A stretch of DNA of 64,000 bases, from NCBI GenBank assembly GCA_036002485.1, contig DASYTI010000051.1, positions 1,304 to 65,303 on the forward strand. The letters run 5' to 3'. The position numbers were made by a program, and so were the translations under genes. Numbering within the stretch: the first letter of the stretch is position 1; every line of letters starts with the position of its first letter. Shown here one piece after another: positions 16,672-60,856 of this stretch. The notes beneath the pieces were generated by a model. That model was not told where the DNA came from. It did no database searches and worked only from the letters and a program-made list of their open reading frames with translations. The DNA is from Candidatus Methylomirabilota bacterium (GTDB lineage: Bacteria; Methylomirabilota; Methylomirabilia; Rokubacteriales; CSP1-6).

Positions 16672-17643
16672 TCAGGCGGGCTGGACTTGCTCGATCTTCA
16701 CGACGTCGACGGCCCCGACCCGCCAGCCGCCCGCTTCCTGCTCCCAGCGGGCATTGAGGGTGACCACACTTTCAGGGCCCTCCAGCCGGTACTTCACGAT
16801 CCGATGCCGACCGAGCTTGACGAAAGCCACCGTGCGATGGCTCGCGAAGCGGCCGACCTTGAGGGCCGCCATCACCGTCGCGTGTACCGGCGTGGCGAGA
16901 AAGCCGCCGAGGGCGGTCGCATCCGCGCTGATAAGAGCATCGCCAAGGGAGCGGATGGCGGTCTCGAGGTCTTCTGGAATGGGCCAGCGCGTCTGGGCCC
17001 GCTCGAGCCGGATGAATTCCCGCGCGTCGTCAGAGACCGGCGCGGACGGGCTGGCCGGCAGGCCGACGGCCGGGGGCACCCCCTGCCCGGTCACCCCGCC
17101 CGCGGCTTCGAGCAGACCCTGGAGCCTGGTCTGCCAGGCCGCCGCCCGGGCCTCCCGCTCGGACGACGTGACGAGATGGCGAATGATGGTCTCTCCGGCC
17201 ACGATGTGCCGGCGCTCGTCCTCGATACAGCGGGCGAGGATGCGGCAGGTCGGCGGCTCGTAGACGGGGTTCGCCTTGGCCAAATGCTGCTCGTAGACGC
17301 TCAGGAGGTGGGGCTTGAGCACGCGATAGACGCCGGCCAGACGCTCGATGGTCTGGCCCGGCGCTTCAGGCGCCTCCACGGCGTCCATGAGGGCGACGAA
17401 AGCCGGGGTGGCCGGCTCGGACTCCTGGGCATGCGCGCGCAGCTCGGGCAACCGCTTCCCCCAGGCATCGGCGTGCTGGGCATTGTCCCAGACGTGGCGG
17501 CCGAGGAGGAGCTTGGCGGAGAGCTCGGGGGTAAGGGCGATCCACCCCGCCATGATGCGCATCATCCGCTCCGCGACGTAGCGATAGTTGCGGCAGAGGC
17601 GGGCGGAGTCGTCCGCCGAGAATTGCCCTTCGAGGAGTTCCAC
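16672..17643 (-). CDS. ferritin-like (DUF455-related) domain protein with C-terminal NTF2/SnoaL-like extension
   Basis: 323 aa; N-terminal four-helix-bundle-like region with HVWDNAQHADAWGKRLPEL, paralogous to the downstream gene's QVWDESRHVEIYIRLLEHL; GTG start 7 nt after upstream stop. Confidence 0.55.
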   Translation of the reverse strand: MELLEGQFSADDSARLCRNYRYVAERMMRIMAGWIALTPELSAKLLLGRHVWDNAQHADAWGKRLPELRAHAQESEPATPAFVALMDAVEAPEAPGQTIERLAGVYRVLKPHLLSVYEQHLAKANPVYEPPTCRILARCIEDERRHIVAGETIIRHLVTSSEREARAAAWQTRLQGLLEAAGGVTGQGVPPAVGLPASPSAPVSDDAREFIRLERAQTRWPIPEDLETAIRSLGDALISADATALGGFLATPVHATVMAALKVGRFASHRTVAFVKLGRHRIVKYRLEGPESVVTLNARWEQEAGGWRVGAVDVVKIEQVQPA

Positions 17644-17650
17644 GGTCTGG

Positions 17651-18406
17651 CTAGTAGACCTGCGAGCGCTGGGTCGACTTGATCAGCCGCTCGATCTCTT
17701 CGTCCGTGAAGCCCGCGAGCTTGCGGGCCTCGGTGGCGATGGAGATGGGCACCACCTCGTGGTCCCCGAGCTGACGGGCCCCGCCCAGGTTGAACCGCTC
17801 GTCGATCGTCTCCTGGAACTCGATGGCCTTGCGGCGCCGCTCCGGATCGCCCTCGGTGAGCTTGGTCAGCCACTTCGAGCCCATGCGTACATGGGTGATC
17901 TCGTCGGCGAGGACGAAGTCCACCGCGCGCTCCAGAATGGGATCGCCGATCTTCTTGCCGATATAGACGAGCTGGTTGAACACGTCGCAGGCCAGGCCCT
18001 CGAGACCGCGGTTGACGCCGGCCACGCGGGCCGCGGCGTCTTCCGCGCAGGCGCAGCGCCACAATATGGTCGTCTCGGGGAACTCGCCGATATAGCCGTC
18101 AAGGTGCTCGAGCAGGCGGATGTAGATCTCGACGTGGCGGGACTCGTCCCAGACCTGGCGCGCCATGTCCATGCTGAACTCCCACGGCGCGTCGGGGAAA
18201 TCGTAGACGGTGCGGCCGGCGCCCTCCATGGCCTGCATCTCGCCCACCAGGATGCCGTGGGCCCGCTCCTTGATCGAGTCGCGGCTCGAGAGCTCGGGAA
18301 ACGGGGGCAGGCCCTGGCTGATCTTGCTCTCCGCGACTTCCCGCGCCCGCATGCGAACCATGCGGTCCTCGCGGGCTAGCTTGTCGAACGCGATCTGACG
18401 CTCCAT
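17651..18406 (-). CDS. ferritin-like DUF455-family protein
   Basis: 251 aa from ATG 18406 (MERQIAFDKLA) after GGGGAGAG; the listed ORF is longer. E/H-rich helices typical of di-iron ferritin-like folds. Confidence 0.6.
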   Translation of the reverse strand: MERQIAFDKLAREDRMVRMRAREVAESKISQGLPPFPELSSRDSIKERAHGILVGEMQAMEGAGRTVYDFPDAPWEFSMDMARQVWDESRHVEIYIRLLEHLDGYIGEFPETTILWRCACAEDAAARVAGVNRGLEGLACDVFNQLVYIGKKIGDPILERAVDFVLADEITHVRMGSKWLTKLTEGDPERRRKAIEFQETIDERFNLGGARQLGDHEVVPISIATEARKLAGFTDEEIERLIKSTQRSQVY

Positions 18407-18503: not shown

Positions 18504-19706
18504 TCACTCGGAGGGCTCGGCCTGCCGGGGCTTCCGCCGTCTCGGGACGAGACTGGCGGGACGGACGGCTTCCTCGCCGAAGCGCGCGGCCAGGTTATCC
18601 ACGGCGCGGGCGAGGCGCTCCGTGCGCGCCACGTTGGGCTCCAGAAGAGAGAGCTGTCCGCGGCCCGCGGATCCCAGCATCGAGACGGAGACGCCGATGA
18701 GCCGGACGGCCTGCGCCAGGCGCACACGGGAGAAGAGCGTCTCGACCCGGCGGTAGATGGCGAGGCCATCCTGGGTCGCGTCACCCGTCTGCGCGCGCGT
18801 GATGGTCGAGAAGTCGGCGAAGCGGAGCTTGAGGGTCACCGTCCGCCCGGCATAGCCGCCGGCTCTGAGCTCGCGGGCCACGCGCTCGCTCTGGCCCCGC
18901 AGCGTCGCGCGAAGGTGCTCGACGTCGCGCGTATCCCGCTCGAAGGTCTCCTCGGCGCCCATGGACTTGGGCGGCGCGGCGGGCTCCACGGGCCGATCGT
19001 CGAGGCCTCGCGCCAGCTGAAGGAGATCGGGCCCGTGCCGGCCGAAGCGCGCGGCCAGGTGGGGGGCGGGCGTCTGAGCGAGCTGGCCGATGGTGAGGAT
19101 GCCCAAGGCGTGAAGCTCGGCTCCCGCGACCTTCCCCACTCCCCAGAGCCTGCCCACGGGCAGCGGTGACAGGAACTCCGCCTCCGTGCCCGGGGCCACC
19201 ACCACGAGCCCATCGGGCTTCTCAAGCTCCGAGGCGACCTTGGCCACGAACTTGTTGGAGGCGACTCCGACGGAGGCCGTGAGCCTCACTCGCGAGGCGA
19301 TCTTCGACTTGATCTGTCGCCCGATGGCCGCGCCGTCACCCCAGAGGGCGCCGCTCGCACTCACGTCCAGGAAGGCCTCGTCGATCGAGAGCGGCTCGAC
19401 GAGCGGAGTGAACTCGGCAAGGATGTCCATGATCTCCGTGGACACGCGGGCATACTTGTCCATGTCCACGGGGAGGTAGGCGCCCTCGGGACACAGCCGG
19501 TAGGCCCGGCTGATCGGCATGGCCGAGTGCACGCCGAAGCGCCGGGCCTCGTACGAGGCCGCGGAGACCACGCCGCGCCCACGCGGGTCCGCGCCGACGA
19601 TGACGGGGAGGCCGCGAAGCTCGGGCCGATCACGCTGCTCCACGGACGCATAGAAGGCGTCCATGTCCACGTGCACGATGGTGCGGGGGTCGGCCCGGTG
19701 GCCCAC
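18504..19706 (-). CDS. dinB: DNA polymerase IV (Y-family)
   Basis: 400 aa; IVHVDMDAFYASVEQRDRPELRGLPVIVG hallmark N-terminus; GTG start, exact start uncertain. Confidence 0.9.
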   Translation of the reverse strand: MGHRADPRTIVHVDMDAFYASVEQRDRPELRGLPVIVGADPRGRGVVSAASYEARRFGVHSAMPISRAYRLCPEGAYLPVDMDKYARVSTEIMDILAEFTPLVEPLSIDEAFLDVSASGALWGDGAAIGRQIKSKIASRVRLTASVGVASNKFVAKVASELEKPDGLVVVAPGTEAEFLSPLPVGRLWGVGKVAGAELHALGILTIGQLAQTPAPHLAARFGRHGPDLLQLARGLDDRPVEPAAPPKSMGAEETFERDTRDVEHLRATLRGQSERVARELRAGGYAGRTVTLKLRFADFSTITRAQTGDATQDGLAIYRRVETLFSRVRLAQAVRLIGVSVSMLGSAGRGQLSLLEPNVARTERLARAVDNLAARFGEEAVRPASLVPRRRKPRQAEPSE

Positions 19707-20508: not shown

Positions 20509-21168
20509 TCACGTGCGCGAGGTCTCCTTGAGTGCCTGCCTGAGCGACTCGATCTCGGCCTCGAGGGCGTGGATGCGCTCCACCATCTGCTCGAGGGTGC
20601 GGGCCAATGGGTCCGGCAGGTCGCTCTGATTCAGGTCGATGCCGGATCGGGCCCCGTCCCGGAATGTTACGCGTCCCGGCACCCCGACCACAACCGAGTT
20701 CTCGGGCACCTCCCGCACCACGACGGAGCCGGCTCCGATCCGGCTTCCCTTGCCGATGCGGAACCCGCCGATGATCTTGGCGCCCGCGCCCACCACCACG
20801 TTGTCGCCGAGGGTGGGGTGGCGCTTCTCGCGCTTGGTGCTCGTGCCCCCCAGCGTCACCCCCTGCAGGATCGACACGTTCTCTCCCACCTCCGCCGTCT
20901 CGCCGATGACCACCCCCATGCCGTGGTCGATGAAGAGCCCGGGCCCGAGGACGGCCGCGGGGTGAACCTCCACCCCGGTCAAGAAGCGACTGACGTGGGA
21001 GAGGAAGCGCGCCGGCGTGTGCCACCCGGCCTTCCAGAGGGGATGCGCGAGGCGGTGGAACCAGATGGCATGCACGCCGGGACAGCAGAGCACGACCTCC
21101 AGCGGCGACCGCGCCGCGGGATCGCGCTCCAGCACCGTCCGGACGTCACGCCGCATCTGCTCGAACAT
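20509..21168 (-). CDS. cysE: serine O-acetyltransferase
   Basis: 219 aa; hexapeptide-repeat left-handed beta-helix ([28 protein letters not shown]) plus SAT N-terminal domain. Confidence 0.9.
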
Positions 21169-21179: not shown

Positions 21180-21557
21180 CTATCTCCGGCCGTTCCGGGC
21201 CAGGGCATCGCGTGCCGCCGCGCGCAGGGCCCCCGCCACCACCAGGGCGGCGTGGCGCCGCTCGGGCGGCAGTCCTCCCACGGCGGCCTCGATCCGCGCC
21301 GGCGGCACCGTGGCGAGATCTTCAAGGGTGAAACCCGCGGCTATTTCGGTGCCGGCGCTACACGCGGCGAGCGTCGGCCCGCATCCATAAGCCTGGAACC
21401 GCGCTTCTTCCACCCGGCCGTCGCGCACCCGCAGGTAGAAGCGCGCCAGGTCCATGCATTCCGTGAACTCCTCCTCGCCCACCCCGTCGGGCTCCCGCAT
21501 GACGCCCGCGTTCCGCGGGTTGCGGAAGTGATCGATGAGGGTCGGACTGTATTGCAC
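21180..21557 (-). CDS. NifU/IscU-like Fe-S scaffold N-terminal-domain paralog (degenerate: 2 of 3 Cys, LPPER instead of LPPVK)
   Basis: About 125 aa from GTG 21557 ([18 protein letters not shown]); CMD and GCGP Cys motifs align with IscU, but the third Cys is Ala (RHAAL). Start uncertain. Confidence 0.6.
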
Positions 21558-21673
21558 TAGCCGATCGAAGGGGGCCTCGACGGCCCCCTCCGAGCCTCCC
21601 CCAGCATGGGGTTGCGCCGGCGAAGCCGGCGCTCGAAAGAACGAAGTTGCGAACCCACGTCTTGGACAGCCTC

Positions 21674-22837
21674 CTAGGGGCGGCCGGCCCCGACGGGCGA
21701 CTGGGTGCGGAGCTTGGCCACGAGGGGGACGACGGACTCGATCACGTAGTCGATGTCCTCGGCCGAGGTGGCGTGGCCCAGCGACGAGCGCACCGAGCCC
21801 ATGGCCCAGTCGAGCGGGATGCCCATGGCCACGAGCACGTAGGAGGGCTCGACATTGCCCGAGGTGCAGGCGGAGCCCGCGGAGACGCCGATCCCCTTGA
21901 GGTCGAGGCCGAGCACGATGGACTCCGACTCGACATTGCGGAAGCACAGATTGCACGTGCCCGGCAACCGCTCGGTGGGATGTCCGTTCAGGCGCACCTC
22001 TTCCACGCGCCCCCGCACGCCGTCCCACAAGCGGTCGCGGAGCGCGGTCAGGCGCACCGCCTCCTCCGCCATCTCGCGGGCGCGGATCTCCACGGCCTTG
22101 CCGAGGCCGACGATGCCCGCGACGTTCTCGGTGCCCGCGCGGCGCCGGCGCTCGTGCTCGCCCCCGTGCTGGATGGAGGCCATCTTGGTGCCTTTCCGGA
22201 TGTAGAGCCCCGCCACTCCCTTGGGTCCATAGATCTTATGTCCCGAGAAGGACAGCAGGTCGATCCCGAAGGCATCCACGTCGATGGGCACCTTGCCGAA
22301 GATCTGGACGCCGTCCACGTGCAGGGGCACCCCTGCCTCACGGGTGATGCGTCCGATCTCGCGGATGGGCTGGAGAGTACCGACCTCCGAGTTCGCGCCC
22401 ATGAGGGACACCACGATGGTGTCCGGCCGCAGCGCCGCGCGGACATCAGCGGGGCTGACCATGCCGTGGCCATCCACGGGCAGATAGGTGGCGGTGAATC
22501 CGTCCTGCTCGAGGGCCTGCACCGTGCGCAGGACCGCATGATGCTCGATCTGCGAAGTGATGATGTGGCCCGACCGCCGCGCGGCGGCCACGCCCTTGAT
22601 GCCCAGGTTGTCGGACTCCGTGCCGCCCGAGGTGATGACGATCTCGTCCTTCGACACCTTGAGGAAGGCGGCGATCTGCTCGCGGCCCGCCTCCATGCCG
22701 TCGCGGGCCTCGCGGCCGAAGCCGTGGACGCTCGAGGGATTGCCGAAGCGCTCGCTGAAATAGGGCAGCATGGCCTGGAGCACCTCGGGATGCACCGGCG
22801 TGGATGCGTTGTGATCGAGATAGACTCGGCGATTCAT
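21674..22837 (-). CDS. nifS: NifS-like class I cysteine desulfurase
   Basis: 387 aa; PLP Lys (SFSGHKIYGPKG) and active-site SAGSACTSG. Confidence 0.9.
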   Translation of the reverse strand: MNRRVYLDHNASTPVHPEVLQAMLPYFSERFGNPSSVHGFGREARDGMEAGREQIAAFLKVSKDEIVITSGGTESDNLGIKGVAAARRSGHIITSQIEHHAVLRTVQALEQDGFTATYLPVDGHGMVSPADVRAALRPDTIVVSLMGANSEVGTLQPIREIGRITREAGVPLHVDGVQIFGKVPIDVDAFGIDLLSFSGHKIYGPKGVAGLYIRKGTKMASIQHGGEHERRRRAGTENVAGIVGLGKAVEIRAREMAEEAVRLTALRDRLWDGVRGRVEEVRLNGHPTERLPGTCNLCFRNVESESIVLGLDLKGIGVSAGSACTSGNVEPSYVLVAMGIPLDWAMGSVRSSLGHATSAEDIDYVIESVVPLVAKLRTQSPVGAGRP

Positions 22838-22875
22838 TGACGCTCCTCTCTCTGGGTGCTACGCTCGGCCCCGCG

Positions 22876-23193
22876 ATGAACCTGGCGAAGCGCAAGCTTG
22901 GACTCATGGTCTCCACGGCGCCCGAGCATCCGAATCTCGACACCGCCCTGGGGCTCGGCCGCGCCGCCCTCGACCGCGGCGCCGAGGTGTACCTCTACCT
23001 CATCGACGACGGCGTGGTCGGCGTGGAGGACGCTCGCGTGCAGGACCTGGCCGAGCGCGGCGCCAAGCTGTTCGTCTGCGCGTACGGCTGCCAGAAGCGC
23101 CGGCGGCCGCTTTCCGACAAAGCCACCAACTGCGGTCTGGTGGTCCTCGCCGACATCGTCAACGCGACCGATCGCTTTCTCGCCTTCAACTAG
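22876..23193 (+). CDS. DsrE/TusD-like sulfur-relay protein
   Basis: 105 aa from ATG 22876; conserved Cys context LFVCAYGCQKRR aligns with the TusD Cys78 region (NICVAAALRRG). Confidence 0.6.
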   Translation: MNLAKRKLGLMVSTAPEHPNLDTALGLGRAALDRGAEVYLYLIDDGVVGVEDARVQDLAERGAKLFVCAYGCQKRRRPLSDKATNCGLVVLADIVNATDRFLAFN

Positions 23194-23194
23194 C

Positions 23195-23551
23195 GTGGCG
23201 GCCCGCCACCCCGTTCTCGTCCTGATCTCGGAGGATCCGCGCGTCTCCCACCGCGCGAACGAGGCCATGCGCATCGCCCTCGGCCTGGTGGCGGGCGAGA
23301 CCCCGGTGGACATCGTGCTCACGGGCCCCGCCGTCCATCTGCTCGACGAAGACACGGATGACCTCGTGGACGGCGATGACATCGCCAAGTTCCGCGCCTC
23401 GCTGAAAAAGCTCGGCATCCCCTTCCTCGTGGAAGCGGGGGCGGCGCCCGCTGATCCGTCCTGGAACGCCCACGGACACCCCGTGGCGCCCATCACGACC
23501 GAAGGCATCGCCGCGCTCGTGCCCAAGGCCGAGCGCTTTCTTGTCTTCTGA
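23195..23551 (+). CDS. DsrF/TusC-like sulfur-relay protein
   Basis: 118 aa; GTG 23195 lies 1 nt after the upstream TAG (coupled); DsrE/F-fold similarity. Confidence 0.5.
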   Translation: MAARHPVLVLISEDPRVSHRANEAMRIALGLVAGETPVDIVLTGPAVHLLDEDTDDLVDGDDIAKFRASLKKLGIPFLVEAGAAPADPSWNAHGHPVAPITTEGIAALVPKAERFLVF

Positions 23552-23775
23552 TGCCCCGCTTCCTTCATCTCATCAAGCGGGACTCCCTGCCCCTGGCCCC
23601 CGCCCTCGTGGCGCGGCAGCTTCAGGAGCCCGGCGCGGAGGTCACCGTGGTGCTCCTCGACGGCGCCGCTCCCGCCCTGCCCGCGGGGGTGGCCGTCAAG
23701 CGTCTGGGCGCCGACCTCGATCACGATGCGCTCCTGGATCTGATCTTCGCGAGCGATCACGTGGTCACCTGGTAG
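23551..23775 (+). CDS. DsrH/TusB-like small protein
   Basis: 74 aa; ATG overlaps the upstream TGA (TGATG); third member of a coupled trio. Weak similarity, assigned mainly by position and size. Confidence 0.4.
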   Translation: MPRFLHLIKRDSLPLAPALVARQLQEPGAEVTVVLLDGAAPALPAGVAVKRLGADLDHDALLDLIFASDHVVTW

Positions 23776-23806
23776 CTCGCGCGGCGGCGAGAGGCCGACG
23801 TGGGCA

Positions 23807-24013
23807 TCATCTGTCCTGGTACTCTTCGTGCCACTTCATCTGAATCTTCTCGAGGACGCCCTCGTTGGAGGCCTTGGGGTCATCGCGGAATCCCGCAAGG
23901 GCCACCACCCACTTGTGCAGGTCGGTGAAGCGCACGGTGAGCGGGTCCACGTCGGGGTGCTCGTCCATGAGGGCGAGCGCGATGTCCTCGGCATCCTTCC
24001 AGGTCATGGCCAT
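23807..24013 (-). CDS. iscX: Fe-S assembly protein IscX (YfhJ)
   Basis: 68 aa; DVDPLTVRFTDLHKWVVALAGFRDDPKASNEGVLEKI is a near-perfect IscX match. Confidence 0.9.
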   Translation of the reverse strand: MAMTWKDAEDIALALMDEHPDVDPLTVRFTDLHKWVVALAGFRDDPKASNEGVLEKIQMKWHEEYQDR

Positions 24014-24026
24014 CTCCGAATCTCCA

Positions 24027-24350
24027 TCATTTGGGAATCTCGACCACGACGTCGCCGCGCACCACGGCCTGGCAGCCGAGGCGGGAGTGCAGGGTCAGCC
24101 CCTCGGCGGTGTCGAGACGGTCCTCCTCGTCCAGCTCCATCGTCGAGAGGTTCTCCTCGCCTTCCCGCACCACGACGTGACAGGTCGTGCAGGCGCAGCT
24201 GCCCCCGCAGTTGTGCTCGAGCTTGATGTTGTTGGCGAGCGCGATATCCAGGAGCGAGCCCGGCTTCCCGTGGTCGGCCAGCGGATACTTGCTCTCGTCG
24301 ACCTCCACCGTCACGTTGAGGGGCAGGAAGGTGACCTTGTGGGTTGCCAT
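24027..24350 (-). CDS. fdx: ISC-type [2Fe-2S] ferredoxin
   Basis: 107 aa; CGGSCACTTCHV...C cluster motif; ATG overlaps hscA stop (TGATG). Confidence 0.9.
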   Translation of the reverse strand: MATHKVTFLPLNVTVEVDESKYPLADHGKPGSLLDIALANNIKLEHNCGGSCACTTCHVVVREGEENLSTMELDEEDRLDTAEGLTLHSRLGCQAVVRGDVVVEIPK

Positions 24351-26179
24351 CACGGCCCCTTCAAGATCTGGTCGGCCCGCCGGGACGTCACGGCCTCCTT
24401 GAGGGCCGCCTCCAGCATGATCTGCGCCAGGGGCTCGGTGGCCCGGTTCAGTGCGGTGGTGCGCTCCCGGATCGCGTCGCGGTCCGTGCCCGCCTCCACG
24501 GCGCGAAGCACGTCGATGGCCTCGCTGATCCGCCGCCGCTCCTCGGCGCCCACGAGGTGGCCGCCCTGGGCGAGGGCCCGCCGCACATGGTTCATGACCG
24601 TCTCGGCTTCCGTCCTCGTCTCGATGAGCAGCCGCGCATTGACGTCAGCCTCCGCGTGGGTAAAGGAGTCTTCCACCATCTGGGCGACCTCGGCCTCGCT
24701 GAGCCCGTAGGTCGGCTTGACCTCGATGGCGGCCGCCTTGCCCGTGCGCTGCTCCCGGGCTTGAACCTGCAGCATGCCGTTCGCGTCGATGAGGAAGGTG
24801 ACCTCGATCTTGGGCATGCCCGCGGGCATGGGATCGATGCCGGAGAGGTCGAAGCGCGCCAGGGAGCGGTTGTCCTTGGCGAGCTCCCGCTCCCCCTGCA
24901 GCACGTGCATGTCGACGGCCGTCTGTCCATCCACCGAGGTCGTGAAGTACTCCTTGGCCATGGTGGGGATCGTGGTGTTGCGCGAGATCAGCACGCTCAC
25001 GATGCCGCCCAGCGTCTCGATGCCCAGGGAGAGGGGCGTGACGTCGAGGAGGAGCATGTCCGTGATGCCGCCCGCCAGGATCTGTGCCTGGATGGCAGCG
25101 CCCAGGGCCACCACCTCGTCGGGATTGAGCTGGCTGTGCGGTGTCTTGCCGAAGAGCTCTTCCACGCGGCGGCGCACCAGCGGTACCCGCGTCGAGCCGC
25201 CCACGAGCACGATCTCGCTCACCTGGTCGGGCGTGAGCCCCGCGTCCTTGAGGGCCAGGCGGCACGGACCGAGCGTCTGGTCCACGAGCGGCGCGATCAA
25301 GCGCTCGAGCTCCCCGCGCGTGATCTCGCGCCGGTACGTGAAGCGCTCGAACGGGATGGTGAGGGTGGTCCGCTCGTCGGCGGACAGGCGGCACTTGGCC
25401 GCCTCCGCCCCCAGACGGAGCTCCTGCACGGCCTCGGGATCGCTCGAGAGGTCCTCGCCGTGGGCCGCCTTGATGTCCGCGAGCAGCCAGTCGACCACGG
25501 CGCGGTCGAAGTCATCGCCGCCGAGATGCGTATTGCCATTGGTGGCCAGGACCTCGAACACCCCGTCCTTGACGCGCAGGATGGAGATGTCGAAGGTGCC
25601 GCCGCCCAGATCGTAGACCGCGATCAAGCCCTGGGCGAGCTTTTGCAGGCCATAGGCGAGCGAGGCCGCGGTGGGCTCATTGACGATGCGAAGCGCCTCC
25701 AGCCCCGCGATGCGCGAGGCGTCCTTGGTCGCCTGGCGCTGGGCATCGTTGAAGTACGCGGGCACGGTGATCACCGCCCGGTCCACCGGCTCGCCGAAAT
25801 GCGCCTCGGCCTGCTGCTTCAGCGTGCGGAGGATCTGGGCCGAGACTTCGGGCGGCGTCACCTCGCGGTCGCCCACGCGGATGCGCACCATCTCGTCGCT
25901 CGCCACGATCTGGAAGGGCACGTGGCGCATCTCGTCCCGGACATCGTCCCCGCCACGGCCCATGAAGCGCTTGATCGAGTAGATGGTCCGCCCGGGATTG
26001 CGGGCGAGCTGCCGCCGCGCGGCCTCGCCGATCACGATCCCGGCCGGCGTGTAGGCGACCACGGAGGGCAGAAGCCGGCGCCCCTCCGCGTCCGGGATGA
26101 CCCGCGGGACCCCGGCCGCGTCCACGTAGGCGACCAGGCTATTGGTGGTGCCGAGGTCAATGCCGACGATGCGCGACAT
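24350..26179 (-). CDS. hscA: Fe-S cluster assembly chaperone HscA (Hsp70 family)
   Basis: 609 aa; [11 protein letters not shown]-terminus and DnaK-like ATPase and substrate domains. Confidence 0.95.
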
Positions 26180-26753
26180 GCGTCTCTACGTCCTCTCCCA
26201 AGGCCTGGCTCAAGTCGTCGATCACCGTGCGCAGGTAGGCCCGCGCGGCCAGGCGCTGCTTGAACCGATCGAGGAGGGGCGCGCGCTCAGCCAGGCGCTC
26301 CACGGCGTCGTCCCACTCCGCCGCCCCGTCGATCACCGCCGTCTCCTCCGCCCGCCGGCGAGCCTCGAGGCGCTCCCGTTCCGCCCTCAGGCGGGCGGAC
26401 GTCTCTGCCGTCAGCCTTGCGGACTTGGCTTCCTCGAGCGCCTCCTGCACCTCGAGCATCTCCTCGAGGAGGTCCGTGGGCGGCCTGGGCTTGGCCGAGG
26501 TCTCCTCGCGGATCTCCCGTCCTTCTTCGAGGGCGATCAGGTACTCCACGCGGGAGATCGGATCGCGGAGTGTCCGGTAGGCGCGGTTGACCAGGGCCGA
26601 GGCCTCGAGCGCGGTGGCCTGCGCCTCGGCGCCCGCCGTCTGATGAAAGTCCGGGTGGTGGCGCCGCGAGAGGTCATAGAAGCGCCGCTGGAGCTCTTGG
26701 AGATCCAGCGAGAGCTTGCGCGGCAGTCCGAACACCTCGAAGTAATCGGTCAC
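26157..26753 (-). CDS. hscB: J-type co-chaperone HscB
   Basis: 198 aa from GTG 26753 (VTDYFEVFGLP...HPD) after GGAG; the listed ORF runs far upstream in frame. Confidence 0.8.
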   Translation of the reverse strand: MTDYFEVFGLPRKLSLDLQELQRRFYDLSRRHHPDFHQTAGAEAQATALEASALVNRAYRTLRDPISRVEYLIALEEGREIREETSAKPRPPTDLLEEMLEVQEALEEAKSARLTAETSARLRAERERLEARRRAEETAVIDGAAEWDDAVERLAERAPLLDRFKQRLAARAYLRTVIDDLSQALGEDVETHVAHRRH

Positions 26754-26848
26754 GTCACGACGTCTCCATAAAATACGAACGGGCCCGCCGGGGCCCGTTC
26801 TGGTTCGCTCCGCTCGGTCCGTGCCCCGGCTATGCCACGGTCCCGGCC

Positions 26849-27175
26849 TTATGCCGAAAACGAGGTTCCACAGCCACAGCTCGATTTGGCCTGGGGGTTG
26901 ATGAAGGTGAACCCCCCCTGCAGCCCTTCCGTGACGTAGTCGAGGGTGACGCCGTTCAGATAGAGGTAGCTCTTCGCGTCGCAGACCATCTGGACGCCGT
27001 CGACGTCGAACTTCTTGTCGTGGGGGCCGAGCTCGGAGTCGAATTCCAGCGAATACGACAGCCCCGAGCAGCCCCCGCCCTTGACCCCCAGGCGCAGGAA
27101 GACCCCGTGGAGGTTCTGGTCCTCCAGGAGCTTCTTGACCTGATTGCTCGCCTTCTCCGTCAGTGCCAGCGCCAT
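26849..27175 (-). CDS. iscA: A-type Fe-S carrier IscA/HesB
   Basis: 108 aa; C-terminal SCGCGTSF motif. Confidence 0.9.
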   Translation of the reverse strand: MALALTEKASNQVKKLLEDQNLHGVFLRLGVKGGGCSGLSYSLEFDSELGPHDKKFDVDGVQMVCDAKSYLYLNGVTLDYVTEGLQGGFTFINPQAKSSCGCGTSFSA

Positions 27176-27190
27176 CAGTCCCTGTCCTCC

Positions 27191-27613
27191 TTACTCTTTC
27201 GATGCCGCGCCCGGGCCCTCGGCTTCCGCCTTGCTCCACTTCTCCTTGTAGTCGTGGAGCGCCGCCTTGATGGCGTCCTCCGCGAGCACGGAGCAGTGGA
27301 TCTTCACCGGGGGCAGCTTGAGCTCGTTGACGATATCGGTGTTCTTGATCTTGGCGGCATCGTCCACCGTGCGTCCCTTGAGCCACTCCGTGGCCAGGCT
27401 CGACGAGGCGATGGCGGAGCCGCAGCCGAAGGTCTTGAACTTCGCGTCCTCGATGACTCCCGTCTCGAGGTTGACCCTGATCTGGAGCTTCATGACGTCG
27501 CCGCACTCCGGCGCCCCCACCAGCCCCGTGCCCACGCCCGGCGTGTCCTTCGTAAAGGACCCGACATTGCGCGGGTTGTTGTAATGGTCCACTACCTTGT
27601 CGCTATAGGCCAT
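27191..27613 (-). CDS. iscU: Fe-S cluster scaffold IscU
   Basis: 140 aa; canonical MAYSDKVVDHYNNPRNVG, GAPECGDVMKLQIRV, FGCGSAIASSS and LPPVKIHCS motifs. Confidence 0.95.
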   Translation of the reverse strand: MAYSDKVVDHYNNPRNVGSFTKDTPGVGTGLVGAPECGDVMKLQIRVNLETGVIEDAKFKTFGCGSAIASSSLATEWLKGRTVDDAAKIKNTDIVNELKLPPVKIHCSVLAEDAIKAALHDYKEKWSKAEAEGPGAASKE

Positions 27614-27648
27614 GTCGCACCATGCCTTCTGGCACCTGGACGGCGCCG

Positions 27649-28875
27649 CTATTCACCCTTCCACTGGATGGTCTTGAGATCCACGCCTTCCTTGGCGAGC
27701 TCGTAGAGCGGGGACATCTCGCGGAGGCGCTGCACGACCTCTACCGAGCGCCGGCCCACGAAGTCCACCTCTTCCTCGGTCGAGAAGCGGTGAAGCCCGA
27801 ACCGGATCGAGGAGTGGGCCAGCTCGGAGTCGACGCCGAGGGCCGCGATGACATAAGAGGGCTCGAGGGTCGACGACGTGCACGCCGAGCCCGATGACAG
27901 CGCGGACTCCTTGTTGAGCCCCATGAGCACCGACTCGCCTTCGACATAGGCGAAGGAGATGTTCAGGTTGTGAGGCAGCCGCTGGGTCGGGTGGCCGTTG
28001 ACATAGGCCTCGTCCACTTTCGAGAGGATGAGATCCTGCAGCCGGTCGCGCAACGCCCCCAGCCGCTTGCCTTCCTCGTCCATGACCTCGCGGCAGATCT
28101 CCGCGGCCTGGCCGAACCCGACGGCCAGGGGTACCGGCACCGTACCGGAGCGCATGCCGCGCTCGTGCCCGCCCCCGTCCATCATGGCCGCCACCCGCAC
28201 CCGGGGACCCTTGCGGCGCACGTAGAGGCAGCCCACGCCCTTCGGCCCGTACATCAGGTGGGCGGTGGCCGAGAGGAGGTCGATGCCCATTGCTTCCACG
28301 TTCACAGGCACCTTGCCCGCGGCCTGGGTCGCGTCGGTGTGGAAGATGATGCCGCGCTCCTTGGCCAGCTTGCCGATCTCGGCGATGGGCTGGATGGTCC
28401 CGATCTCGTTGTTCGCGAACATCACGGAGATCAGGATGGTCTTCTCGGTGATGGCCGCCTTGAGGGCCTCCACGTCCACCAGGCCTTCCCGTCCCACGGG
28501 CAGATACGTCACCTCGAAGCCCTGGCGCTCCAGGCGCTTGCAGACGTCGAGGCTGGCCCGCTGCTCGATGGTCGTGGTGAGGATGTGATTGCCCTTCTCG
28601 CGATACATCTCCGCCACGCCCTTGAGGGCGAGGTTGATGGACTCCGTCCCCCCGGAGGTGAAGACGACTTCCTTCGGATCGCGCGCGCCGATGAGGGTGG
28701 CGATCTGCTCTCGCGCCTTGTCCACCCCGGCTTCCGCCTCCCACCCGAAGGGATGGTTACGGCTGGCCGGGTGGCCGAACTTCTCCGTGAAGTAGGGCAG
28801 CATGGCCTCGAGCACCCGCGGATCCATCGGGGTCGTGGACTGGCTGTCCATGAAGATGGGAAGCTTGAGCGGCAT
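27649..28875 (-). CDS. iscS: cysteine desulfurase IscS
   Basis: 408 aa; IscS-type N-terminus (MPYFTEKFGHPASRNH), SGSACTS active site. Confidence 0.95.
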   Translation of the reverse strand: MPLKLPIFMDSQSTTPMDPRVLEAMLPYFTEKFGHPASRNHPFGWEAEAGVDKAREQIATLIGARDPKEVVFTSGGTESINLALKGVAEMYREKGNHILTTTIEQRASLDVCKRLERQGFEVTYLPVGREGLVDVEALKAAITEKTILISVMFANNEIGTIQPIAEIGKLAKERGIIFHTDATQAAGKVPVNVEAMGIDLLSATAHLMYGPKGVGCLYVRRKGPRVRVAAMMDGGGHERGMRSGTVPVPLAVGFGQAAEICREVMDEEGKRLGALRDRLQDLILSKVDEAYVNGHPTQRLPHNLNISFAYVEGESVLMGLNKESALSSGSACTSSTLEPSYVIAALGVDSELAHSSIRFGLHRFSTEEEVDFVGRRSVEVVQRLREMSPLYELAKEGVDLKTIQWKGE

Positions 28876-28885
28876 CGTCTCTCTC

Positions 28886-29362
28886 CTACCTCGTGGAGAC
28901 CAGCTCGTCCACTGGCACTCCGACTGGCACTCCTACTGGCACTGCTACCGGCCCCACGGGGTCCGCGGCAAGCTCGGCGAGCGTCATGGTGTCGAGCAGT
29001 CGGCTGATGCTGGTCTGGATTTTCTGAACCGGCCGACGCAGATTGCAGCGCGAATACTGCGGACAATCGTCTCCGTCGGTCATGCAGCTCACGATCTTGA
29101 TCGGACCCTCGAGGGCCCGCACCACCTGCCCCACGGTGATCGCGTCGGGGCGGCGCGTGAGCTCATAGCCGCCCTTCGGGCCGTTATGGGCCGTGATGAG
29201 CCGGCTCTTGGCCAGCCGCTGCAGGATCTTGGCGAGGAGCTCCGCGGGAATGTGGAACTCTTCGGCGATGCGCTTGGTGTTCACGGCTCCCTCATCGCCG
29301 TGGGCGGCGATGTAGTGCATGGCCATCAGCCCATAGTCTGCTCGCTTCGTGAACCTCAGCAT
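28886..29362 (-). CDS. iscR: Rrf2-family transcriptional regulator IscR
   Basis: 158 aa; Rrf2 HTH plus three-Cys cluster motif (SCMTDGDDCPQYSRC). Confidence 0.9.
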   Translation of the reverse strand: MLRFTKRADYGLMAMHYIAAHGDEGAVNTKRIAEEFHIPAELLAKILQRLAKSRLITAHNGPKGGYELTRRPDAITVGQVVRALEGPIKIVSCMTDGDDCPQYSRCNLRRPVQKIQTSISRLLDTMTLAELAADPVGPVAVPVGVPVGVPVDELVSTR

Positions 29363-30879: not shown

Positions 30880-32301
30880 CTACTTTTCTTTCTCGAACTG
30901 GTTCTTCAGCTTGCGCAGGTGGAGCTTGGCCACATCCACCCAATCCTTCTCGGTGGGCAGCGGCCCCGCCAGCTGGATGTAACGTTCCCAGAGCGTGATG
31001 GCCTCGCGCGGATCCGTACGCTCGAAGACCAGGGCCAGGTTGTAGAGCGCACCCGTGTTCTTGGGATCCAACTCCACCACCTTCTTGTACTCGGCGATGG
31101 CCTCGGGATAGAGACCCTTGTCCTCGTACACCTCGGCCAGCCCCATTCTGGCCTCGGTATTGAGCGGGTCGAGGTCGACGGCTTTCTTGTAGGCTTGCAC
31201 CGACTCGTAGTAGAGACCCTTCTCCGCGTAGTAGATCTTGCCGAGGCTCGCGTGCACCTGGGCGGAGAGCGGATTGTGGACGAGCGCCTTCTGGTAGGCG
31301 CTGATGGCGCCGTTGACGTCGCCCTTGGCGGCCTTGGCATCACCGAGCCCCACGTGGGCCTCGGCATAGAAGGGCCGGAGGTCTATGGCCTTCGCATAGG
31401 CTTCCTCGGCCTGGTCGAAGAGGCGGCGCGGCGCCGTGAGAAAGAGGTCCCCCAGGGACTTGTAGGGCTCGGGGAAGGTCGAGTCGAGCTGCGTCGAGGC
31501 GCGGAACTGTGCCGCCGCCTTCCACCGATTGCCGAGGGCCTGATGGACGGAGCCGAGCGCGTACTGGGCGAGGACGAACTGCGCGTCGGCTTCGATGGCG
31601 CGAGAGAGGTGCTCCACCGCCGCCTCATTGGCCTCCTGCGTGCCGCGAACGGCCGCGGCGCGACCGCGCACGTAGGACTCCCAGGCCTTGAGGGAGCCCG
31701 TGGGGGCGGCCCACTTCTGCATGCGCGCGGCCTCGGCATCGGAGAGCGGGATCTTGAGCGACCGCGCATAGGCCACGGGCAGCTGGCGCAGCTTCTCGAG
31801 CAGCGCACCGTCCGGCACGGCGATCGGATCGAGGGTTCCCCGCTCCACCCGCTCGCCGCGAACCTCGACCCAGCGGGCCTGGATCGTCGCGTCCCCCGCC
31901 GCCGCGCGGCGTATCTCGCCAAAGAAGGCGACATCGGCCCGGAGCACTCGGGCGGCGGCCACAGTCGCCTGCTCGTCCCAGGCATCGGGCTGCGTCAAGG
32001 ACTGGAGCCGTGACCGCTCGATCAGGATGATGCCGGGGATCTGGCGGAAGCTGCTCATGATCGACTGGGCGGCCGCCTCGCCCATCCACTGCTCTTCGCG
32101 CGGAAGGTCCGGAGTGGCGAAGGGCAGGATGAGCACGCTGCGGACCTTGGTGGCGGCGGCGGCCGGCGTCTGTGCCGACGCGGGCATCGCCCCCCAGACA
32201 AGGAGCCAGGCGGTGCAGACGGCGAGCCAGGCAATGCGGGTGATGATTGCGCGGCGTTTCGAGATGCTGCTATCGGATACGCGGCTACCGATTCGTGTCA
32301 C
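30880..32301 (-). CDS. TPR-repeat protein with signal/TM anchor (BatC-like)
   Basis: 473 aa; multiple 34-aa TPR units; terminal gene of the MoxR/Bat-like operon. Confidence 0.8.
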   Translation of the reverse strand: MTRIGSRVSDSSISKRRAIITRIAWLAVCTAWLLVWGAMPASAQTPAAAATKVRSVLILPFATPDLPREEQWMGEAAAQSIMSSFRQIPGIILIERSRLQSLTQPDAWDEQATVAAARVLRADVAFFGEIRRAAAGDATIQARWVEVRGERVERGTLDPIAVPDGALLEKLRQLPVAYARSLKIPLSDAEAARMQKWAAPTGSLKAWESYVRGRAAAVRGTQEANEAAVEHLSRAIEADAQFVLAQYALGSVHQALGNRWKAAAQFRASTQLDSTFPEPYKSLGDLFLTAPRRLFDQAEEAYAKAIDLRPFYAEAHVGLGDAKAAKGDVNGAISAYQKALVHNPLSAQVHASLGKIYYAEKGLYYESVQAYKKAVDLDPLNTEARMGLAEVYEDKGLYPEAIAEYKKVVELDPKNTGALYNLALVFERTDPREAITLWERYIQLAGPLPTEKDWVDVAKLHLRKLKNQFEKEK

Positions 32302-35300
32302 GTCCGGGCCCTCCCTGGGTGAGGCGCAGGGCGCGGAGCCACGCCCCCATGCGACCGAGAGCGCCGGGGCCGATGCGCCGCAGCGCGATCTCGGGGATCA
32401 GCAGGACGGCCGACAGTCCGACCAGCCACGGCCAGAGGTCGATCCACAGCCGAGACTTGCGCCGATTCTGCAAAAAGACATCGCGCGGCTGGGCGACGGC
32501 ACCGCCGCCCGTCACTTCCGAGATCTCCCGCAGGAATGCCTCGTCCACGCCCAAGTCCCGGAACTCCTGCGCATAGGGTACCACCAGGCCCGCCAGCTGC
32601 GAGCCCACCATCTGGTCGCCCCGCCGCTGCGACATGCCGACCAGGTAGACCCCCTCCTGGGCCGCCGGGAAGCGACCCCGATAGCGGCCTGGCGCGATCT
32701 GCTCGAGCTCGACCACGGAGCGGTACTTGTCCGGAGCGACCACGCCGACCTGTGAATCGAGGAAGTTGACGAACTCGCCCTTCGCATCGATGGCGTCGAC
32801 CACGACCTCGCCCGCCTCGTCCACCCGCGAGACGCTCGCCACCGTATCGCTTCTCGAGCCCGTCCGAAGCGTCCACCGGGTGATCTGGGCCCAGAACTTG
32901 TTGAAGCCGCCCCACCGCAGCCACAGCACCGCCCACTTGCCCTTGGCATCCGAGGTGAACGCGGCGGCCCGGCCGAGCCCGTAGCGCCAGGTGGCGAGCA
33001 GCGGGTCTTCCTGATGCGTCATCAGGACCATCTCGCCATTGCCCTTGAGGGTGGTGGCGACATAGCCACCGAGCGGCGGCGCCTCCTTCCAGTCGATGTC
33101 CTGGATGGCCTCGTGACCCGGCTGGGCGACGGCGGGCTTGAACGGCTGCTCCACCAGCGAGGCCTTGGAGGCGAGCTGCGTCTCGAGGGTGAAGATGCGC
33201 GGGACGGTCGCGCCCTCGTCCGTGTAGTAGAAGCGCCCGCGCCCCCACTTGGCGATGTCGACCATGAGCTGGATGTCGGCGTCCTTGCCGATGGCCACGG
33301 TGGACACCGTGATCTTGTCCTTGGCCATGCGCCGGATCAGGCCGGCGAAGTCACCGCGGGTCATCTGGCCGTCGGACAGGAAGATGACGTGCTTGAGAAG
33401 GGCGGGCCGGTCGAACAGAACCTGGTAGGCCTCCTTGAGGGCGGGGTAGCCGTCGGTGCCCCCGCCGGCCTTGATGGTGGCGATGGCGTGATGGATGGCC
33501 TGCTTGTCACGCGCGGGCCGCATGGCCGAGTCCCAGACGAACTCCGTGTCCCAGCTCATGACCCCGACCTCGTTGCGCTCGTCGAGCAGGTCAACGACCA
33601 GGTGGGAGGCTTCTTTCGCGATGTCGAGCTTGGTCGCCTTGTCGTCGGTAGTCATGGCCATGGAGCCCGACCGGTCGATGGACAGCACCACGGCCAGGCT
33701 CGGGATTTCGATCTTCTGCTTGACCTCCATGGTGACGGGCAGAGCTTCCTCGATGGGCGTCCGGTAATAGCCGCCCAGGCCGAAGCTCTCCTCGCCGCCC
33801 ACCATGATGAGCCCGCCCCCCTGCTCGCGGACGTAGTCGCGGATGTTCTCCATCTGCTTCTTGGTCATCTTGAGCGACGACACATTGGACAGGATGACGC
33901 CGTCGTACTTCTGGAGACCTTGGGCCTCCTTGGGGACACGCTCCGCCTCCACGAGATCCACGTCCACGTGCTGGGCGCGCAGGGCGGCCGTGAGCGCCTG
34001 GGCCTGGCTGCGGTCCTTCTCCACGAGTAGCACCTGGGGGCGGCCCCGCACCACCACCGTGCCAATGGCCCGATTGTTTTCTTCGATGACGTCGCCCTCC
34101 ACGTCGATGGCGGCCTGGAAGACGTGGATGCCGCTCTGCTCGAGCGACTGTCGATAGGAGAAGACGTTCTTGCCCGCGTTGAGCTTGACGACCTGGGACC
34201 CGAGGAACTCACCGTTCCGGAAGAGGGAGAGCCGTCCCTGGGTCTCGGCCTGGCTCCACGCGACCACCTTGGCCTTGAAGGGCTCGCCGAACTTCACCTC
34301 CTGAGGCAGGAGCATGGACTCGACCACGACCTCCTGCTTGAAGGTCAGGGGCGCCGGGACATACCAGATGTCGGCCCCGGCATCCTTGGCCGCCTGCGCG
34401 ACGGCGAGCGCATTGCCCACGTTCTGCCGCCCGTCGGAGAGCAGCACGAATCGGTTGGCGTGGCCGGGGGGCGCCGTGGCCAGGGCCAGCTGGAGCGCCT
34501 GCGCGAGATTGGTCCCTCGTCCGCCCACCGTGGCCTGGGGGCGATCGATCTTGTTGCCCGGCTTGAGCGCCTGATCGACCACCGCCTCCTCACCGAAGAC
34601 GATGACCCCCGACTGGTCGCCGGGCCGCGCGGCGCCGGCCGACTGGGCGGCGAAGCGGAATGCGCTCTCGCGCGCGGCCAGGCTCACGCTGTCGGAGACG
34701 TCCAGGAGATAGATGACGTTGAGACGGTCGACGCCGCGCGGAAGGACGGGCTTGAGCAAGGCCGCCGCGAGCAGGACGAGGAGCACGCACCGCAGTCCGA
34801 GGGCCCAGCGGTCGCCGTCGTTGAAGGGCAGCCCGTACCGCCCCGCCGTCTGTCGCCGCCAGTAGAGCACGCCCTCGATGGTCAGGAGGACGAGGGCAAG
34901 GAGGGCCAGGAACTGCCAGAGCTCGCGCTGCACCGGCACCGGCGCCGTGTCCGCGCGCGCGCCCTCCACGAAGGCGGGAAGCGGCTTGGGCGCCAGCTCC
35001 GACTCGTCGGGACTGAAGAGATTGACGGCGACCTTGGTCTCCCCGCGCGGCGTGGACACCGTGTAGACGCCGACCTCGTCCGTCTCCGTATAGCTGATGG
35101 CCCCGCGGGTCACCTGGGCGCGAACGCTCCGGCCCCCCGGCGTCGTCACCGTGGCCGTGTTCACGCCGTGCTCGACGGGGAGCAGAATGGGCTGACCGGT
35201 CTGAAGCGACAGGCTCGACTGGTCCAGGCCCGCCGGGTGCAGCCAGCGGAGCGACTTGGACATCATGAGCGGGAAGGCCACGCGAAGGGGCAGGTCGGAC

Positions 35301-36679: not shown

Positions 36680-37569
36680 GCGAGCAGGAGTCCCTTGAGC
36701 TCGCGGAGCACGAGCTCCTCTACGGGGGTGTCGGTGGCCACGCGGTGATAGCTGATCTCGTTGGCGCGGCAGAAGCTCTCGGCGCTCTCCAGAAACTCGC
36801 TCAGGCGCTCGCGGTATCCGCGCATGGCCTCACCGTCCATGGTGAAGTCCTGCATCTCGCCCGTCTCGGCGTCCGTGAGCCGGAGGTCCCCGGCCAGGAC
36901 AGGATTCATCTCCTCGGGCGAGAGCAGGTGAATCACGTGGACATCGAAGCGGCGCTCCAGCAGCGCCTTGAGGCCGCGCTCGTATCCCGCAGGGTCGAGG
37001 AGGTCGGAGATCAGCACGGCCAGGCCTGCCTCGCGCGAGCGGAGCGCGTAGGCCACCAGCGCCTCGGACAGCCCCGTGGGGCCCTCCCCGCGCAGGCGCG
37101 CGGCGAACTCCAGCAGCGAGAGCAATTGCCCGCGCCCGCGCGCCGGGCTCCAGCCCTCGGCCATGCGGTCACGGATGACGGCCACGCCCACCCGCTCGTG
37201 GCTGGCCAGGCCGACGAAGCCCAGGGCCGCGGCCAGCCGCGCCGCGTAGCGGAGCTTGCCGGGATCGCCGAAGCTCATCGACGCGGAGCCGTCGAGGAGG
37301 AGGTGCAAGCGCAGGTCCTCCTCGTCCACGAAGAGCTTGAGATAGAGACGGTCGAGCCGGCCGTAGATATTCCAGTCGACGTAGCGCAGGTCGTCGCCCA
37401 CCCCGTAGGGCCGGTAATCGGAAAACTCGACGCTCATCCCCTTGCGGGGGCTCTTGCGCTCGCCGCGGGTGCGACCCCGGAAGGCCCGCCGGGACAGGAG
37501 GGCGAGCCGCTCGAGCTGCAGGAGGAACTCGGGCGAGAGCAGGTCCTGTCCGCGGGTCGCGGTGGGCAC
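36676..37569 (-). CDS. DUF58 domain protein (MoxR-associated)
   Basis: 297 aa; EFSDYRPYGVGDDLRYVDWNIYGRLDRLYLKLF DUF58 core. Confidence 0.85.
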   Translation of the reverse strand: MPTATRGQDLLSPEFLLQLERLALLSRRAFRGRTRGERKSPRKGMSVEFSDYRPYGVGDDLRYVDWNIYGRLDRLYLKLFVDEEDLRLHLLLDGSASMSFGDPGKLRYAARLAAALGFVGLASHERVGVAVIRDRMAEGWSPARGRGQLLSLLEFAARLRGEGPTGLSEALVAYALRSREAGLAVLISDLLDPAGYERGLKALLERRFDVHVIHLLSPEEMNPVLAGDLRLTDAETGEMQDFTMDGEAMRGYRERLSEFLESAESFCRANEISYHRVATDTPVEELVLRELKGLLLA

Positions 37570-44323: not shown

Positions 44324-44536
44324 TTAGTGGCAGCCGCACCCGCCGCCGCAACAGCCGCCCCCTGACATGGGGGCGGAACCCGCGGCGGCGGCATTGGTCC
44401 GCACGGAGAGAAGCGAGAGGCGGCGCGTGACGCGGGCGCTCTCGCACGAAGGACAGGCGACGGCCGTCGCGCTCGAGGGGACGTACTTCTCGAACTCGCC
44501 CTCGCACTGATTGCAGCGATACTCGTAGATCGGCAT
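44324..44536 (-). CDS. FmdB-family zinc-ribbon protein
   Basis: 70 aa; MPIYEYRCNQCEGEFE...CPSCES plus Gly/Cys-rich tail. Confidence 0.8.
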   Translation of the reverse strand: MPIYEYRCNQCEGEFEKYVPSSATAVACPSCESARVTRRLSLLSVRTNAAAAGSAPMSGGGCCGGGCGCH

Positions 44537-44579
44537 ATGGGTCCGGGTCCCTCGTCCGCTTTCCAGGCTGCCCGCGCGC

Positions 44580-44780
44580 TTACTGGCCGCCGCGCTGCAC
44601 GTAGCTCTTCACGAACTCCTCGGCGTTCTCCTCGAGGATATCGTCGATCTCGTCCAGGAGGTTGTCGAGGTCCTCCTTGATCTTCTTGCCCTTCTTGGCG
44701 ACCTCGGGGTTCGCCCCCGCCGCATCGTCGCCGCCTTCGGGCTTGGTCGGTCTCGTTTCCTTCTTCTTCTGCTCAGCCAT
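44580..44780 (-). CDS. pup: prokaryotic ubiquitin-like protein Pup
   Basis: 66 aa from ATG 44780 (AGGAGGAG SD); C-terminus DNLLDEIDDILEENAEEFVKSYVQRGGQ is the canonical Pup motif ending GGQ. Confidence 0.85.
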   Translation of the reverse strand: MAEQKKKETRPTKPEGGDDAAGANPEVAKKGKKIKEDLDNLLDEIDDILEENAEEFVKSYVQRGGQ

Positions 44781-60630: not shown

Positions 60631-60856
60631 GCGCGCCCTTCGCCCTCTTCAGCGAGGACAGCGAAGCAACTCCTCCGCCTCCCCGGCCAGCTCGCGGACG
60701 ACTTCCCGCGGAACGTTCGTCTGTCTGAAAACGAGTGGCCCCAACAGCGAATCGGCGAAGGGCCGGATTATATGCCGGCTAACAGCGGTACGTCGATACC
60801 GCAAGGGTCGCCGGCACGGGCGCCCCGACCTCTTGCGCTTCCCCCCGGGAGGCGTC

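Follow-up and report, generated by a model that had tools for sequence, protein, structure and literature searches.

This study concerns three small adjacent genes, g1, g2 and g3, carried by a stretch of 64,000 nucleotides from a Candidatus Methylomirabilota bacterium of the order Rokubacteriales (assembly GCA_036002485.1, contig DASYTI010000051.1, positions 1,304 to 65,303), the whole of which is called the window here. All three are encoded on the forward strand: g1 (22876-23193, ATG start, TAG stop) specifies a DsrE/TusD-type protein of 105 amino acids (aa), g2 (23195-23551, GTG start, TGA stop) a cysteine-free 118-aa protein assigned to the DsrF/TusC type, and g3 (23551-23775, ATG start, TAG stop) a cysteine-free 74-aa protein assigned as a truncated DsrH/TusB-type subunit. 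Taken together, these genes very probably form a compact, derived trio of the DsrE-F-H / TusD-C-B type. As an earlier note on this DNA had pointed out, the proteins are smaller than Escherichia coli TusD/C/B (128/119/95 aa) and Allochromatium vinosum DsrE/F/H (130/136/102 aa, taken as the chain lengths in the Protein Data Bank, PDB). The same note had described the genes as joined by a 1-nt gap and an ATGA overlap: the gap between g1 and g2 is indeed present, but the g2 stop and g3 start form a TGATG junction (23549-23553, +) with 1 nt in common, an arrangement typical of translational coupling; a few relatives do have ATGA there. The g2/g3 overlap of 1 nt (4 nt in five loci) is kept in most of the relative loci, which are the best 80 of 259 stretches confirmed in a scan of one genome per GTDB species.

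The trio consists of real genes, each under purifying selection (median dN/dS of 0.22 for g1, 0.24 for g2 and 0.37 for g3). The complete trio is intact in 75 of the 79 loci that could be scored, and the other four have no g3 open reading frame (ORF) with a terminal tryptophan, two of them being contig ends (L018 and L072) and one seemingly frameshifted (L047). The g2/g3 region appears frameshifted or devoid of an intact g3 ORF in L047 (8346-8916) and L020 (6856-7040), a disruption that could be due to assembly error or to real decay. An antisense ORF (22834-23760) was set aside as a shadow ORF, its GC content at third codon positions being 0.81 as compared with 0.87-0.91 for the trio genes, and the sense-strand proteins being conserved; an upstream ATG at 22804 was likewise rejected as the g1 start, as homologues begin at the position equivalent to 22876. 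A word-indexed protein search returned 1575 homologues for g1, 1510 for g2 and 206 for g3, and all those with a named source come from Methylomirabilota/Rokubacteria assemblies. The fastest evolving of the three is g3, with identity down to about 37%; in one clade it was missed by tblastn, and an ORF of 83-92 aa with the same termini stands at the same place. The earlier note had made its proposal hang on the conservation of this third ORF, and g3 was found throughout the phylum.

The clearest family member is g1, which passes the gathering score of the Pfam DsrE family PF02635 (25.8 bits for a threshold of 22.7). Its AlphaFold2 (AF2) model has a mean predicted local distance difference test (pLDDT) score of 82.8, is weak past residue 80, and displays a DsrE-type alpha/beta fold: the five best Foldseek matches (2hy5_B, 3mc3, 2qs7, 3pnx and 2pd2; probability 0.99-1.0, E-values of 5e-3 to 3e-2) are all structures of the DsrE/DsrF family. 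The active-site cysteine context of TusD/DsrE that the earlier note had recognized in g1 is present as the motif LFVCAYGCQKRR at residues 65-76, in which Cys68 aligns with Cys78 of both TusD and DsrE. This cysteine is invariant in 81/81 sequences (78 from Rokubacteria and three distant ones), and closes the modelled strand 64-68 just ahead of helix 69-74. All DsrE-like proteins have one conserved cysteine in common (PMC11094781), and g1 is a DsrE/TusD-type subunit and a candidate persulfide carrier via Cys68. Beyond Cys68, the 78 distinct Rokubacteria sequences also have an invariant Cys72, which makes up a C-x3-C with it, and an invariant Cys86; neither occurs in relatives outside the phylum, where a cysteine is found in an MCDG motif instead.

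The other two subunits are more diverged. Against PF02635, g2 scores 20.9 bits (E=4e-4), just under the cut-off, and a precomputed match to the same family is found on part of its homologues. It lacks the "...RG" loop and has gained a near-invariant, clade-specific acidic motif (HLLDxDTDDLVDGDD); among its clade-specific residues are four invariant or almost invariant aspartates (D14, D51, D59 and D62) and H19, which 78/80 sequences have. As for g3, no match was obtained in Pfam, NCBIfam or the PDB sequences, and neither g3 nor 26 close homologues match the DsrH family PF04077. Its AF2 model is nevertheless confident (pLDDT 93.6), with a b-a-b-b-a-b topology, and the protein has lost the central ED..ARG segment and the loop equivalent to the active site. 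Being cysteine-free and deprived of the equivalent loop, g2 and g3 are most simply read as structural partners.

Direct profile searches with the window proteins and their close relatives do not assign g2 and g3 to a subunit type. The NCBIfam scan of the three proteins gave chance-level matches only, close-homologue profiles found no PDB sequence for g2 and g3 and an insignificant DsrE match for g1 (E=1), and hhalign comparisons of shallow alignments with single E. coli Tus proteins were not significant; they became informative once diverse loci and intermediate sequences had been added. The g3 family profile, run against 1.84 billion representative sequences, gave 149 matches, including proteins of 80-90 aa that have the ED..ARG segment typical of TusB/DsrH. 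Eight distant matches are recognized by Pfam DsrH (PF04077), such as P0460 with 24.9 bits for a gathering score of 24.4. With three distant g3-like sequences as seeds, a scan of metagenomes then brought up L088, L089 and L091, which lie outside the phylum and carry full trios of about 105/115/85 aa; these are, subunit by subunit, the closest homologues found there.

These less-derived trios link the window proteins to the canonical subunits. In hhalign comparisons, g1 matches its distant counterpart at P=7e-12, which in turn matches TusD/DsrE at 2.7e-6; the corresponding values are 3e-13 and then 1.7e-9 with TusC/DsrF for g2, and 4e-26 and then 5.7e-14 with TusB/DsrH for g3. With the extended families, g1 matches TusD/DsrE at P=1.2e-6 and g3 matches TusB plus DsrH at P=4.4e-8. 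In direct comparison, g1 and g3 each match best the canonical subunit of their own position, and g2 matches none significantly. Cross-type comparisons are mostly weaker by orders of magnitude, with the exceptions of the distant g2-like group against TusB/DsrH (P=5.9e-5) and of g1 against the distant g3-like group (P=5.1e-6). The NCBIfam TusD/C/B models match the distant trio in the expected order, at 21-41 bits for equivalog cut-offs of 49-94 bits: TIGR03010 recognizes distant g2 orthologues at 6.7e-9 and 1.2e-10, and TIGR03011 the g3 orthologues of L088 and L091 at 1.2e-7 and 1.4e-5, respectively. The g2-like orthologue of L088 also reaches 46.8 bits with PF02635. The D-C-B order with one gene per subunit type was thus recovered in the comparisons based on intermediates (g1 as E/D, g2 as F/C, g3 as H/B), and the assignment and order put forward in the earlier note hold, through Pfam for g1, and for g2 and g3 through profile chains passing by less-derived relatives.

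E. coli TusBCD (PDB 2D1P) likewise has three small alpha/beta subunits that are paralogues of one another, with their genes in the order D-C-B, a single catalytic cysteine in the D subunit (TusD Cys78, corresponding to g1 Cys68) and a B-type subunit that ends in tryptophan, as g3 does, in a genome that also has an IscS-type desulfurase. In contrast to it, the trio has no equivalog model match, g2 has lost the ...RG loop and g3 the ED..ARG segment, and g1 has gained its two invariant cysteines. Gene order (E-F-H), subunit types and the active cysteine (DsrE Cys78) are also shared with A. vinosum DsrEFH (2HY5/2HYB), and no structure matches the g1 model better in Foldseek than its DsrF (2hy5_B); however, the trio proteins are much shorter, there are no dsr genes in the window, and the alpha2 beta2 gamma2 heterohexamer of such complexes is for the trio a putative assembly. 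The trios of L088, L089 and L091 resemble the window trio in gene order and sizes, and their H-type subunit likewise ends in LIFxxDxVxxW, but Cys72 and Cys86 are missing and canonical features have been kept: MCDG, the ...ERG loop of F, the ED..ARG segment of H, and CDRV at the C-terminus of E; these trios also score on the TusD/C/B models. The homotrimeric DsrE3A (3MC3) and DsrE2B (2QS7), second and third best structural matches of g1, have the fold and one conserved persulfide-binding cysteine in common with it; unlike the trio, with its three specialized paralogues and an active-type cysteine in one only, they are single-gene homo-oligomers that work with TusA in sHdr or tetrathionate pathways.

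The position of the trio between a NifS-NifU-CysE cluster and an isc operon, and its convergence with iscX, were described in the earlier note, and Pfam and NCBIfam confirmed these neighbours. On the reverse strand upstream of g1 lie a NifS-like class V cysteine desulfurase (21674-22837; Pfam Aminotran_5 at 3.4e-83, best NCBIfam model TIGR03402 NifS with 509.7 bits for a cut-off of 530.75), a NifU_N/IscU-like scaffold (21180-21560, start approximate; Pfam NifU_N at 1.2e-24, best NCBIfam model TIGR03419, far under its cut-off), and the serine O-acetyltransferase CysE (20509-21168; TIGR01172, 233.8 bits for a cut-off of 210.65). Downstream, also on the reverse strand and thus convergent with the trio, the isc operon (23807-29362, Pfam) comprises iscX (23807-24013), fdx (24027-24353), hscA (24350-26179), hscB (26157-~26770), iscA (26849-27175), iscU (27191-27613), iscS (27649-28875) and iscR (28886-29362), hscA and hscB being identified by the precomputed annotation of the syntenic locus L001 and by tblastn synteny, and the other genes by Pfam; IscS additionally scores 606.8 bits on NF010611 (cut-off 548). 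The stop of iscX, at 23807, is 31 nt past that of g3, and a 38-bp intergenic region (22838-22875) separates g1 from the start of the divergent NifS-like gene at 22837.

The order cysE-nifU-nifS, divergent from g1-g2-g3, itself convergent with iscX-fdx-hscA-hscB-iscA-iscU-iscS-iscR, is unchanged in all 80 relative loci, and was also found in 16 metagenome contigs. All 80 were assigned by synteny to Methylomirabilota/Rokubacteria, a few records having other bin names. The arrangement is kept down to about 64% (g1), 47% (g2) and 37% (g3) identity, and farther flanking genes, such as an HD-domain gene, are variably present among relatives.

When the NifU-like scaffold of this neighbourhood is compared by eye with the IscU of the window, the first two cysteines that act as cluster ligands are still there (ECMD, GCG), but it has PPERRHAA in place of the IscU LPPVKIHCS, with loss of the third cysteine and of the HscA-binding LPPVK motif; it has another, extra cysteine (AACS), and falls far under every NCBIfam NifU/IscU cut-off (93.6 bits for 187.9).

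Alignment of nifS-g1 spacers revealed a conserved promoter-like element of consensus TTGAC-N14/15-TGnTAnnnT, represented in the window (22837-22865, +) by a -35 box TTGACG (22837-22842), a 17-nt spacer and an extended -10 box TGcTACGCT (22857-22865). The element is present in 69 of the 80 loci, and in 66 of these it stops 8-10 nt ahead of the g1 ATG; its pattern occurs in 48 of 20000 random windows (0.24%). In the window, 10 nt separate the -10 box from the g1 ATG, and no Shine-Dalgarno-like sequence was seen on inspection of the sequences upstream of g1, g2 or g3; these two features suggest that the trio mRNA is probably leaderless, or nearly so. A scan of 22400-24200 for consensus promoters and terminators reported nothing. 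The conserved CTCC of the spacer corresponds to the GGAG Shine-Dalgarno of nifS on the opposite strand, and the trio promoter-like element overlaps both this sequence and the nifS start codon. The 38-bp spacer thus seems, from its sequence, to hold only the trio promoter and the nifS Shine-Dalgarno, in which case the nifS promoter would have to lie inside g1, leading to overlapping divergent transcription and to a possible mutual interference of both operons. The earlier note, which placed both promoters in these 38 bp, is right about the spacing, but would be mistaken or incomplete about the nifS promoter.

Where would the sulfur carried by such a complex come from, and where would it go? Within the window, phmmer searches with E. 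coli TusA, TusE and MnmA, and with TusA, ThiS and ThiF of L088/L091, gave no match, and Pfam scans of 40 predicted window genes found no dsrAB, dsrC, rhodanese or thiolation enzyme, in line with the lack of nearby tusA/tusE/mnmA and dsrAB already remarked on. Homologous trios elsewhere have other company. In L091, the trio is directly downstream of tusA, and in L088 and L089, genes for a PAPS reductase, an APS kinase, a ThiS-family protein (terminating in GG in L089) and a ThiF-family E1 are followed by E-F-H, the cluster being flanked on one side by a gene for a pyridoxal phosphate-dependent cysteine-synthase-like enzyme (cysK/M). Such a gene set resembles a thiocarboxylate pathway for making cysteine, of the CysO/CysM type, and the DsrEFH-like trio may there provide the sulfur instead of a rhodanese domain, which the ThiF-family E1 of both contigs does not have. 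L088 (1-5271) and L089 (1-4720) are metagenome contigs with 63-64% GC. The tusA and cysH-cysC-thiS-thiF contexts argue for a role in sulfur transfer for the compact trio family.

Considering all this, we lean, with moderate confidence, towards a compact heteromeric sulfur carrier that would probably be fed by the adjacent desulfurases and whose acceptor would be encoded elsewhere. The trio would have its own promoter, and its tricistronic mRNA would be near-leaderless and translationally coupled; the resulting complex would carry sulfane sulfur as a Cys68 persulfide, as suggested by what this cysteine is known to do in the family (PMC11094781). The sulfur would be taken from the NifS-like enzyme, from IscS, or from both, with no adjacent TusA; what points to these donors is the invariant synteny within one phylum together with the overlapping regulatory sequences. 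The sulfur would then be passed to this acceptor; by analogy with related trios, candidates are a carrier-activating enzyme of the ThiS/MoaD/CysO type, a protein like TusA or DsrC, and a thiolation enzyme. The clade-specific Cys72 and Cys86 may serve as relay or resolving thiols. In our search of the literature on DsrE-type proteins with NifS, IscS, Fe-S assembly or CysO, this trio arrangement was not described.

Several observations weigh against this interpretation. None of the window proteins has a match at E<=10 to the TusD/C/B equivalog models (TIGR03012/TIGR03010/TIGR03011), g2 shows no significant similarity to TusC/DsrF when their profiles are compared directly (P=0.2), and Foldseek retrieved only generic Rossmann-like matches with the g3 model (E>=0.1). 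The C-terminal quarter of the g1 model has a pLDDT of 52-63, a weakness of the monomer that is compatible with a need for partners but no proof of it. The trios outside the phylum are not adjacent to desulfurases, and the syntenic loci all come from one phylum, so that the adjacency could be inherited rather than functional.

These last two observations are also what would favour a relay that is independent of its neighbours, feeding ThiS/MoaD/CysO-type thiocarboxylation (for cysteine, molybdopterin or thiamine) or a distant TusA, its position being simply inherited synteny: homologous trios are indeed found in cysH-cysC-thiS-thiF-cysK/M clusters or beside tusA. This alternative seems unlikely, if the most serious of those considered, as the arrangement outlasts the drop to the identity levels given above while the farther flanks vary, the trio promoter overlaps the nifS start codon and Shine-Dalgarno, and thiS and thiF were not found in the window.

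A second alternative, rather improbable, is that the fold has been recruited to Fe-S assembly itself. The DsrEFH scaffold would have turned into a component of Fe-S biogenesis, bridging the NifS-like and ISC machineries, and binding iron, a nascent or complete cluster or a polysulfide chain, or buffering persulfide for the scaffolds, via Cys68-x3-Cys72...Cys86 and the acidic, His-bearing surface of g2; we give this extended version the same low probability. Such a role would make sense of the trio lying exactly between two Fe-S assembly operons, of Cys72 and Cys86 being present in every Rokubacteria g1 and absent outside the phylum, of the clade-specific aspartates and H19 of g2, and of the lost active-site-equivalent loop of g3. 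However, we know of no metal or cluster binding in the DsrE-type family, Cys86 belongs to the low-confidence part of the model, which makes a spatial closeness of the three cysteines hypothetical, and extra cysteines beside the active one are found in ordinary DsrE3C relays (PMC11094781).

Still less probable is that the trio is the TusBCD orthologue, acting with TusA, TusE and MnmA in the synthesis of 2-thiouridine (s2U34) in tRNA. The D-C-B order, the three subunit types and the active cysteine are in common, and the gene for IscS, from which that pathway draws its sulfur in E. coli, lies 4 kb away; yet the window proteins match the three equivalog models at no score, even the less-derived orthologues remain far under the cut-offs, tusA, tusE and mnmA were not found in the window, and the full Tus relay is essentially gammaproteobacterial. 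E. coli TusBCD adjoins ribosomal protein genes, whereas the trio lies between two Fe-S operons. The tRNA thiolation suggested as an end use in the earlier note is left without specific support. Finally, a DsrEFH of reverse-Dsr sulfur oxidation, donating to DsrC/DsrAB, is very improbable: some Rokubacteria do have dsrAB with co-located dsrEFH (PMC6018805), but the published dsrEFH sits inside the dsr cluster, dsrAB and dsrC are not found in this window, the proteins have no score with the TusD/DsrE, TusC/DsrF and TusB/DsrH equivalog models, and the trio is confirmed in as many as 259 stretches of species-representative genomes. We take the trio to be an orthologue neither of TusBCD nor of the dsr-linked DsrEFH of some Rokubacteria, the latter known here from its description in PMC6018805.

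DsrEFH/TusBCD complexes are known from two settings, sulfur oxidation and gammaproteobacterial tRNA thiolation, and the trio represents a miniaturized version, present throughout the phylum and only partly named by annotation pipelines, g3 being called "hypothetical" and g2 sometimes "predicted peroxiredoxin". Should the link with the adjacent desulfurases be true, a DsrE-type carrier would here receive its sulfur directly from a desulfurase, and in this phylum of abundant, uncultivated soil bacteria the trio might mark the point where Fe-S assembly parts from the other pathways that require sulfur. From a practical standpoint, metabolic predictions that infer sulfur oxidation from "dsrEFH present", as in the rule set of PMC6018805, should leave this trio out of the count.

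Other features of the window deserve mention, independently of the trio. Two adjacent DUF455 (ferritin-like) genes (16672-18400, -), the second matching weakly (19.8 bits), are located just upstream of a Y-family polymerase gene (18504-19706); at the corresponding position, the syntenic locus L001 has an ABC peptide transporter and not this pair. A 385-aa protein with a domain resembling the bacterial archaeo-eukaryotic release factors (baeRF family 3/7) is encoded at 2496-3653 (-), and a Pup-like gene (74 aa, PF05639 at 2e-22) lies beside a gene for a small zinc-ribbon protein at 44324-44804 (-). Downstream of the isc operon (30880-37569, -) is found part of a Bat/aerotolerance-like set, with genes for a TPR protein, a 1464-aa BatA/VWA/GATase1-like protein and a DUF58 protein, and a separate MoxR-type AAA_3 ATPase is encoded together with a DUF4129 protein at the far end of the window (60551-63166, +).

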